From NCBI GenBank assembly GCA_965649765.1, contig OZ287754.1, positions 18,600,001-18,664,000 of the forward strand: a DNA stretch of 64,000 bases, written 5' to 3'. The position numbers and the translations under genes are program-made. This DNA comes from Bispira polyomma (Eukaryota). Position 1 is the first letter of the stretch. Every line of letters begins with the position of its first letter. Below, piece after piece: positions 27,901-30,900 of this stretch. Below the pieces are notes generated by a model. That model saw nothing but the letters and a program-made list of their open reading frames with translations, did no database searches and was not told the origin of the DNA.

Positions 27901-30900
27901 TGATAGTAAGTAATTCGTGGGTCACTGAAGGCCAGAATGGGGACATTATTGACAATAGACTTAGCCTTGATAGCAGAAAGATAATTGGCCATCAAAGCAG
28001 GTTTTACAGAGTTAAAGTTTAATAATTCTAAGAAAGCAAGGCGGTCAAACACAGTCACCTGATCCACTGGAAGATCCATAAAGGCAGCATAGGCATGGTA
28101 TACCCTATACATTGAGTTGTAGGATCTGTCAGTAGATCTACAGAAAGCCAGGTGTAATTTGGCAGTGGCATGTCTGTATAGTGACTGCTGAACCGGGTTG
28201 CTCTCTGTAAACACATAAGACTACAAGGAAGATACTACTGCTATATTCTTTATATTTTTTCATCTAATTCAAGGTGATCATTTGTAACATTGCACTACTG
28301 AGTTGGACCTGCAAGTTCATATAAACGAATATAATTTTGCTTACAGCAGTAGAGTTGTCTTCACGTAAGATATGTATTACTTTTAACTGCACATCATATT
28401 GGCTGGCTGTCATGAAATTATTTCTAGAATATAAAGCTAGAGTTTCATCTCGTGTTCTACCATGTGTAAGAACACTAACCACAGCCTGGTTGTCACACTT
28501 TATCAGTATTGCACGACCTTTCCATTGCACACCCCACAACCTGAGAGCTACCAATATATTAAACATTTCTAAGGAAGCAATATTCATCTGTTGCATATCA
28601 AAGGTACAGATAGGGTGTATACTTGATTGTCATAAATACCTCCCATACCAGTAAGGCAGGCATCTAACTCTATAATAGCAGTGATGGGTTTGTGTTGAAA
28701 AAAGAACACCCCATTGAATTTACTAAGAAAGGTTCTAAACCAATTGAGATCTTTGATGAATTCAGTGGTAATTTTGATTGATTTATTCTTATGGTTGCTT
28801 CTGAGGAGGTGGAGCATCCTATTGAGAAAGAATCTGGAGTATTTCACACATTTTGAAATATATAACAAAGAACCTAGTAAACACTGCAGTTCACGTTTAG
28901 TACAGAATTTTTTGTTTGCCCAGCTATCACAAATGGTGTGGATATTTAGTAATTTTTCCTCTGGTATGGAGGTGGTAAACTCCACAGTGTCTATGACAAT
29001 ACCCAGACAGGTCACCCGTGTAGCAGGGGGAACCAGTTTGCTCTTACTCAAAGTCAGACCGAGTTCGGTTAATAGAGCCTGCAATCTATTGTAGGTTTTA
29101 TATATTTTTGTAGGTACTGAGCAGCAAAGGAGATCATCGATGTAGTTCGTAATCTGATGACCTTCACCTTGCATTATATACCTTATTCCATCCAAAATTC
29201 GCTGGAAGATGGCCGAACCATGCTTATAACCGAACGGAAGCGAACCGTCGATGTAGTAACCATCCCAGTACAGTCCCAGCAAATTAATATCTCTTGGATC
29301 TATAGTCACGTGTCTAAAAGTGCGACTTATATCCACTTTAAAGATTAAAGAACCTTTTCCCATGACAAGTACCTGCTCAGTGATTGTGTCACTCGAAGGG
29401 TAGGTAAGTATAAATTCCTTTCCTAAGTACGTGGTAGGACACACAGCTGCATTAACCGAATGTCCGAGAGGCCAGCTTAGGTCAATGATAACTCGTCGGT
29501 TAACAGAACTCGACTTGTCCCTGGTCATGAAAGGAGAGGTATGTACTTCATCAATAGGGGAATTGCAAATGGGCCATACATTGCTCCAAATTTACATTCC
29601 TCTTTTGAATAATAAGTCACATGATCCGGATATTGGTTAGCTGAAGAATGGTTATCGAGGTCAGAGTGGAACACGTGTTCCTCGTCACAGTCAAGGGGGA
29701 AACCATATTTTATAAGTAAAGGGAGTTCTCAATCCCAATACCCAGTCAAGTATTTCTCCCACTCTGGGGCATTCAATTGTGTAATCACGGGTATTTGTAA
29801 TCCCCTATAGTTTGGGCGCCCATCTTGCTTAAGTCGCTTATGTAGGGTGAACACGTCCATAGTAACCTTATTATGTGATTCTTTTGAATGGGTCCACCCC
29901 ACGAGCTAGGTGGAATAAAACCAAATTTTCCGTTATGTTGAATATCCCACAACTTGTAGGTATCAAAGTCTTTAGCGTTATTTAAACGCTGTCTTTTATC
30001 GGGACATTTGTACACTTCTAAAGCATATTTGTCGTCGCAAATATTCACCTGAGTGTTTCTTGTACGTTTTTGCTTATTTGGAAGTTTTTGACAAGATTTG
30101 CTATAAGCCACGGGGGCAGAGACAATAGTTTCTACTGCCTGCACACTAGGGGAGTCTAATAATGCAAATCTATTGTGAATGGGTAATTGGAATTCACTTT
30201 GTTTGTTGACACCTTGTGCCAGGTCACTTGATTTCACATTCAGGGACAAAGAGCCCCCCCCCCCCCCCCTTTTGGGGGAGGGGCTTTTTGACACCTAATG
30301 TCTGCCCCGGCTTTGGTAGCCTGTGACACTTTGTTAGTCCTGCTAACAATAGAGCCCAATTTTGTTCTGTTGGCACAGAAGTTTCCATTGTGCGAGCTGG
30401 GAGAAAGTAAAGGCTTATTCAAACATTTGATTTCTGCACCCTTTGTTTTACCGAAAGTTCTTGTTTTGACTTCCAAAAGAAAACCCTGCCTTTCACTAAT
30501 CCCAACATCGCTCACAGGAACTTTTTGTTTTGTTTTGTCAGAAACACCTTTTCCCAACACCATGTCCCTGTAAGACCTTTTTGACACACTTGACACATGA
30601 CTAAAACATACCTTTTTACACAGATTAAAATCAGTAAATGCAGAATTATACACGATTCTCGAATAGACCTTTTTCAACTTTTTTCTCTCAGCCACTGCAT
30701 TACTGCAGTGGCCCCTTAGTTTTTTACATTCTTTTTAGTGCACAGTTTAGTCTGGTGGCCCCCTTCACAATTCTCACAGACATGCTTGAATGACTGACCA
30801 GAAGTACGGTGACTTGCATTGAACTTGCATGTGCCTTCTTGAAAGAACCTGCCGTTCACGCCTTGGCTTTTTAGCTGTATCTTACTCTTAGAGGCACTAT

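Follow-up and report, generated by a model that had tools for sequence, protein, structure and literature searches.

We report that copies of one family of tyrosine recombinase (YR) retrotransposons carry, at the end of gag, the slippery heptamer A AAA AAC followed by a hairpin, and we believe that the two together are very probably a family-wide programmed -1 frameshift signal into pol. This prediction is made from sequence; it is preferred because the heptamer is conserved at synonymous sites, the hairpin is conserved with some covariation, pol opens at the heptamer with no conserved ATG, and the signal is absent from a sister lineage with pol in the +1 frame. On balance, and with distinctly less assurance, we are inclined to a broader proposal: one young multi-copy YR family switched its gag-pol junction between -1 frameshifting (two heptamers, hairpin), +1 frameshifting at GUU-stop and UGA read-through, while keeping one intron for a Gag-recombinase fusion.

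The window is the whole stretch of 64,000 nucleotides analysed here (Bispira polyomma, contig OZ287754.1, positions 18,600,001 to 18,664,000), and the coordinates below are counted from its first letter. It holds three minus-strand elements, each with a PF00078 reverse transcriptase (RT) match, an RNase H region and a gag-like ORF with a terminal Cys/His finger; the match to the tyrosine recombinase PF00589 is weak in the window elements (Pfam). Element 1 (26490..31997, mapped to relatives) comprises an A repeat, pieces of gag and of pol, YR at 27309-28220 and a B repeat; a second A/B pair was looked for in this element and none was seen. Element 2 (54504..60204, likewise mapped to relatives) is 99% like locus L095; its gag is open (58509-59654), its YR lies at 54973-55974, and its pol is interrupted by a stop at 57844-57846 and by further breaks later. 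The YR gene of element 3 (window 53205-63649) was split by the insertion of element 2, so that a 5'-truncated gag, a broken pol and the YR start lie upstream (60200..63649) and the remaining YR with a B repeat downstream (53205..54512). All three are decayed Ngaro-like YR retrotransposons and all are broken; they are dead and could not themselves make gag-pol or gag-YR products.

Every window copy ends at B1 (26490, 54504 and 53205), and A2-spacer-B2 is absent; these repeats were also not seen in many copies fetched from the host genome. The loss in the window copies is probably due to B1 x B2 recombination. As to the neighbourhood, element 3 is truncated by a piece at 63630-63998 (minus strand) without a Pfam match, which we take to be endonuclease-like and LINE-like. 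A LINE-like fragment with a zf-RVT ORF lies at 2876-3460 (plus strand). Long inverted repeats, up to 98% alike and about 3.2 kb apart, enclose two ORFs without a Pfam match at 17354-20828; this unit is likely a DNA transposon.

The family is Ngaro-like, order DIRS, by structure. Ngaro elements are defined by split repeats, co-oriented ORFs and the lack of a methyltransferase (PMC4157794, PMC8547959). Here gag, RT/RNase H and YR are co-oriented, and split direct repeats in the order A1-[ORFs]-B1-A2-B2, with B1, A2 and B2 downstream of YR, are found in relatives such as L092, L111, L124, L232, L225, L238 and L235; of these repeats, A1 and B1 alone remain in the window copies. Five pol proteins gave no methyltransferase match (Pfam), and pol ends about 306 aa past YxDD, at the end of RNase H, in all six examined. 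DIRS1-like and PAT-like filings were rejected, as no methyltransferase follows RNase H; inverted terminal repeats of the DIRS1 type were not found either. Since PAT lineages without a methyltransferase exist (PMC4157794), we keep to the term "Ngaro-like". Two further observations concern the relatives. Tandem repeats often lie directly 5' of the elements, upstream of the A1 repeat (L097, L092, L111, L235 and others), possibly owing to a target preference or as element-derived repeats. Extra ORFs occur in the 3' region of L116 (6667-7879), L125 (6515-8002) and L238 (6514-7116, no Pfam match), some of which may be nested insertions.

The preliminary description of this DNA had placed A AAA AAC in the gag frame, at or near its stop, in all three window elements, followed after 6-9 nt by a 9-bp stem, perfect in elements 1 and 3; all of this was confirmed. 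The heptamer of element 1 (30719..30725) adjoins the gag stop, and after a spacer of 6 nt comes a hairpin with a 4-nt loop (30691..30712, fold z-score z -4.56). In element 2 the heptamer (58533..58539) precedes the stop by seven codons, the spacer is 9 nt, and the hairpin (58492..58523, z -2.39) has a 14-nt loop and one G-U pair in its stem. Element 3 has the stop one codon past the heptamer (62889..62895), a spacer of 6 nt and a 4-nt loop (62861..62882, z -5.69). The respective gag C-termini are KN*, KNEQPAAHL* and KNE*. The comparison with the canonical X XXY YYZ plus stem signal also held, for the heptamer is in the zero frame and the 3' structure follows within 5-9 nt. On both strands of the window AAAAAAC occurs 41 times, and a stem of at least 9 bp starts 5-10 nt later in four cases, three of which are the sites of elements 1-3; for any X XXY YYZ, with frame ignored, the count is 35 of 982. 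The fourth case (17098, minus strand) lies outside the YR elements and is probably due to chance.

Conservation of the heptamer was assessed in the host genome (1.035 Gb, 75 contigs). Three gag searches and 41 fetched stretches yielded 131 loci, or 116 after 15 overlaps were dropped; each search scores only 150, the best among thousands of candidates, and these copies are therefore a sample. The exact A AAA AAC is present in 98 of the 116 distinct copies, and the rest reflect point changes, indels or misalignment. It is kept in 29 of 30 copies with at least 400 open -1 codons and in 70 of 83 others. Linkage at 85% aa identity gave 35 gag groups. For the Asn of the heptamer 29 of 29 groups use AAC, against a background of 60/220 (27%), and another conserved gag Asn column has AAC in only 6/27. 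The Lys is AAA in 34/35 groups (background 300/448), with 45-84% AAA in 11 other conserved Lys columns of gag. A is also the last base of the preceding codon in 34/35 groups (background 547/2049), although this codon encodes S, A, P, V, T or L (one stop). These data point to selection for the nucleotide sequence and not for the protein. Relatedness among copies and among groups makes the counts non-independent, and binomial values overstate significance; the 35 groups nonetheless reach into deep branches when placed on the gag tree.

At the protein level, gag homologues in other assemblies agree. Of 114 close homologues with the finger, 101 have KN among their last 14 residues (8.5% by chance), and the residue before it can always be encoded by an A-ending codon. 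More distant representatives end in KN in 33 of 68 cases, with Cys before KN in two of the 33. The proteins seem to be drawn from few assemblies. Since the metagenome and viral contigs searched contained no DNA of the family from other species, the cross-species support is at the protein level only.

The hairpin is stable in most of the family: z is below -2 in 19 of 22 representatives (median -3.7), and in 14 of the 22 it is stabler than every one of the 72 control windows taken from the element concerned. The stable 3' structure 5-9 nt after the heptamer known from eukaryotic -1 signals is thus found here, although it is weaker in the long-loop class. The covariation analysis that had been proposed across family copies gave a mixed answer, and we regard the support from it as thin. 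In the short-loop class 98.4% of cells are paired and two columns show compensatory changes, G-C to C-G in 5/14 and A-U to U-A in 2/14, the former probably a single event; six of the nine pairs never vary, and the number of pairs with a change on both sides was matched by 123 of 500 shuffles. The long-loop class, to which element 2 belongs, is 83.3% paired and does no better than shuffles, 53-70 of 500 being as good. A separate observation is that a Cys codon at pol codons 6-8 past the heptamer is kept in 22 of 22 representatives of both hairpin classes; it may merely reflect the stem sequence.

The signal had been described as conserved. This stands for family copies with A AAA AAC, but not every lineage of the family has the signal: others, found in the same genome by searching with distant gag proteins, use other junctions. 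In one of them (L132-L161, L192-L231 and L237-L241; e.g., the gag stop of L225 at 2638) 51 of 54 distinct copies have a gag that ends in GTT-stop, with TAG in 19, TAA in 18 and TGA in 14; the background for GTT among Val codons is 133/480. The stop is followed by T in 41, by A in 10 and by C in one. This lineage has neither the heptamer nor the hairpin (a comparable hairpin in 0/11), and its pol is in the +1 frame; in L225, L227 and L238 this pol is 832-884 aa long and takes in RT and RNase H. The junction is a good candidate for a closterovirus-type +1 frameshift, judging from these motifs. Gag proteins P0255, P0331 and P0346 of other sources also have a terminal Val.

In another lineage (L235, L236 and L252-L287, many of them near-identical young copies) 32 of 36 loci have the heptamer G GAA AAC, a long stem following it after 7 nt, and pol in -1; slippery heptamers tolerate GGA as XXX (PMC5009743, PMC3542737). 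In a fourth (L288-L320; e.g., the gag stop of L303 at 2644) pol is in frame with gag, and the gag TGA is followed by CAG CCA (14) or CTC CAA (6), in 20 sequences altogether; in L303 and L314 the in-frame pol runs through YIDD. Five other members lack the TGA-CAG-CCA/TGA-CTC junction through mutation, and single-sequence folds revealed no strong 3' structure. We presume, with fair confidence in the pattern, that UGA is read through into pol in this lineage.

The four junction labels require three changes, which is the minimum, on a tree built from 50 gag representatives, against a mean of 20.9 for shuffled labels; each switch is a single event, so that this is a contrast and not a statistic, and one tip labelled "p1" belongs to the G GAA AAC lineage but is mutated. 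A AAA AAC is found on both sides of the midpoint of this tree, which has no root and carries a long-branch warning; there is a hint that the -1 mode may be older than the other junctions. The RT tree separates the +1 and -1 sets with support 100/100, and L224 in it is a long-branch artefact (internal duplication).

Expression of the recombinase can be considered separately. Donors are predicted in the middle of gag at 31288..31294 (G|GTA), 59126..59132 and 63416..63422 in elements 1, 2 and 3 (intron starts at 31293, 59131 and 63421, minus strand), and acceptors at the YR start at 28205..28222 (T-rich), 55950..55967 and 60391..60408 (AG ending at 28205, 55950 and 60391). An AG|GTA donor lies on a Gly codon at one aligned place, just upstream of the KSxRG motif, in 24 of 24 representatives, compared with 8 of 345 other Gly codons. 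The acceptor test took the best T-rich acceptor in any phase; nine of the 24 representatives could not be anchored, and in all 15 that could the acceptor agrees in phase with the donor, 14 of them having it at 53 or 56 nt from the anchor. In the lineages with G GAA AAC and with read-through, reading by eye found a G|GTAA donor in 8/9 and a T-rich acceptor directly past the pol stop in 8/9. All four lineages retain phase-matched splice sites linking mid-gag to YR. Of the 15 anchored cases, eight have an ATG in frame ahead of YR and seven have none. The frame of YR relative to pol is -1 in six cases, +1 in four and 0 in three; thus, a fixed pol-YR frameshift is not possible, and it was rejected as the general mechanism. 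We consider it probable from the motifs that the recombinase is made from a spliced message joining the first half of gag to YR. None of the joints listed in contigs of three runs of unknown kind matches the predicted intron, which says nothing on expression. Among 300 YR matches there was no open frame near 500 aa that would represent a spliced retro-copy, a result not informative on splicing.

Given a strong upstream donor, it is tempting to propose that pol is also reached by splicing, from mid-gag to an acceptor just past the gag end (a CAG in the 3' arm of the hairpin); indeed, 16 of 22 representatives have a phase-compatible YAG at pol codon 9-10. However, these candidates score 4-7 on the T-rich metric versus 7-9.5 for the YR acceptors, L091 and L093 have no phase-compatible YAG in the first 30 pol codons, and the candidate CAG is base-paired inside the stem. 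Such splicing would also leave unexplained both the synonymous conservation of the heptamer and the ordered junctions of the other lineages, and we consider it quite unlikely. A conserved TCCTCTAAAG past the hairpin in the group of element 3 was dropped as an acceptor, since it is not common to other groups.

The reading frame downstream of the heptamer bears on the frameshift more directly. It is open for at least 100 codons in -1 in 78 of 113 copies, in frame 0 in one and in +1 in four, and stops per 100 codons number 1.84 in -1 versus 5.12 and 13.23 in the other two frames. An unbroken -1 ORF of 826-851 codons through RT/RNase H is present in 6 of 40 long loci, three more ORFs of this kind were found, and the RVT_1 match falls in the -1 frame of the relatives (Pfam). 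The earlier claim that the -1 frame leads toward RT stands with a qualification, as continuity to RT is shown only in relatives; in the window copies this frame closes before RT after 161, 231 and 24 codons in elements 1, 2 and 3; L095 and L096, relatives of element 2 at 98%, have 851 open -1 codons.

Pol might instead have a start of its own (an internal ATG, re-initiation or a subgenomic RNA), with the hairpin serving replication, packaging or a function at the DNA level. A stem core that is invariant beyond the needs of pairing would suit this explanation, as would an ATG in the -1 frame inside the gag-pol overlap in some groups, including that of element 2. A conserved ATG was looked for in the -1 frame across groups and none was found: in many groups this frame is closed 3-8 codons upstream of the heptamer with no ATG between, and the first ATG downstream lies anywhere from codon 12 to codon 391, the frame being open up to that point. 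In the relatives the long -1 ORF opens at the heptamer and has no conserved start of its own; the window copies are interrupted. Moreover, stops are depleted in the -1 frame only, and the +1 lineage has the same layout and repeats yet lacks the hairpin; this explanation is slightly less probable than splicing into pol. Slippage of RNA polymerase on the A6 run, adding a base and thus bringing pol in frame at the RNA level, would account for the invariance of the run and is known to be difficult to tell from ribosomal frameshifting (PMC5009743), but the run is short (only A4 in the G GAA AAC lineage), the last C and the codon phase are both conserved, and a 3' stem at 6-9 nt suits the geometry of the ribosome, which makes this the least probable of the three.

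We return to the programmed -1 frameshift. The mechanism itself is textbook. The unspliced RNA would be translated into Gag; the hairpin would cause a pause at A AAA AAC, where tRNA-Lys and tRNA-Asn could re-pair in tandem one base back, and a minority of ribosomes slipping by -1 would produce the Gag-RT/RNase H fusion at a low Gag-Pol to Gag ratio. The spliced RNA would yield half of Gag fused to YR. The related lineages would meet the same need through a +1 shift at GUU-stop, UGA read-through or the -1 site G GAA AAC. The three products anticipated in the preliminary description (gag, gag-pol by frameshifting and gag-YR by splicing) are thus supported by the sequences of the family, but the window copies are too broken to give them.

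In the literature covered, expression of pol and the recombinase in YR elements has been inferred from ORF overlap alone; short testable signals are now given for both. If the broader proposal is true, the missing expression scheme of Ngaro is supplied, together with a natural matched series on how recoding signals replace each other and, so far as our literature search reached, the first +1 site of closterovirus type known from a retroelement. Matched -1, +1 and read-through junctions under the translation of one host make the interchangeability of recoding signals testable by reporter, and the poorly understood GUU-stop shift becomes directly testable with reporters. In our search no gag-pol recoding signal was found described for YR elements, although two primary papers (Goodwin and Poulter 2004, Poulter and Butler 2015) may contain an earlier mention of a gag-pol overlap or frameshift; the first 300,000 of the 449,034 characters of the Atkins review (PMC5009743) do not mention DIRS. 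For Ngaro, a -1 frameshift from RT/RH into YR has been proposed (Poulter and Butler 2015, as quoted in PMC13003380). The present family argues against the scheme as quoted: its pol-YR frame is not fixed, its predicted splice sites are conserved, and the frameshift signal is at gag-pol.

A close likeness is to the -1 gag-pol frameshift of retroviruses and Ty3/Gypsy elements, with which the family shares the heptamer class, a spacer of 5-9 nt, the stem-loop and the gag-pol logic (PMC3542737, PMC5009743). In spacing and consensus the family signal agrees with the eukaryotic -1 signal (PMC3542737). A_AAA_AAC ranks with the shiftiest heptamers, and in a set of 51 animal LTR elements pol was in -1 in 28 and in +1 in only two (PMC5009743). 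The family differs from retroviruses and Ty3/Gypsy elements in having YR rather than a DDE integrase, split repeats rather than LTRs and no protease domain in pol (Pfam); the stimulator looks like a simple hairpin by predicted folds. The sister lineage resembles the closterovirus +1 site GUU-stop-C (PMC3542737) in ending gag with GTT, here before any of the three stops, and in its +1 pol; unlike that site, it mostly has T past the stop, with C in one copy, and its host is a retrotransposon. TGA CAG CCA of the fourth lineage, with pol in frame, recalls the type I read-through signal stop-CAR-YYA of tobamoviruses (PMC3542737), and the gag-stop-pol arrangement in one frame recalls gammaretroviruses; it differs from both in using UGA rather than UAG and in lacking a strong 3' structure. 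The recoding mechanisms are thus known from viruses and LTR elements; what seems new, so far as our literature search reached, is the occurrence of such predicted gag-pol signals in YR elements, and with it the finding that related lineages of one genome differ in their junctions.
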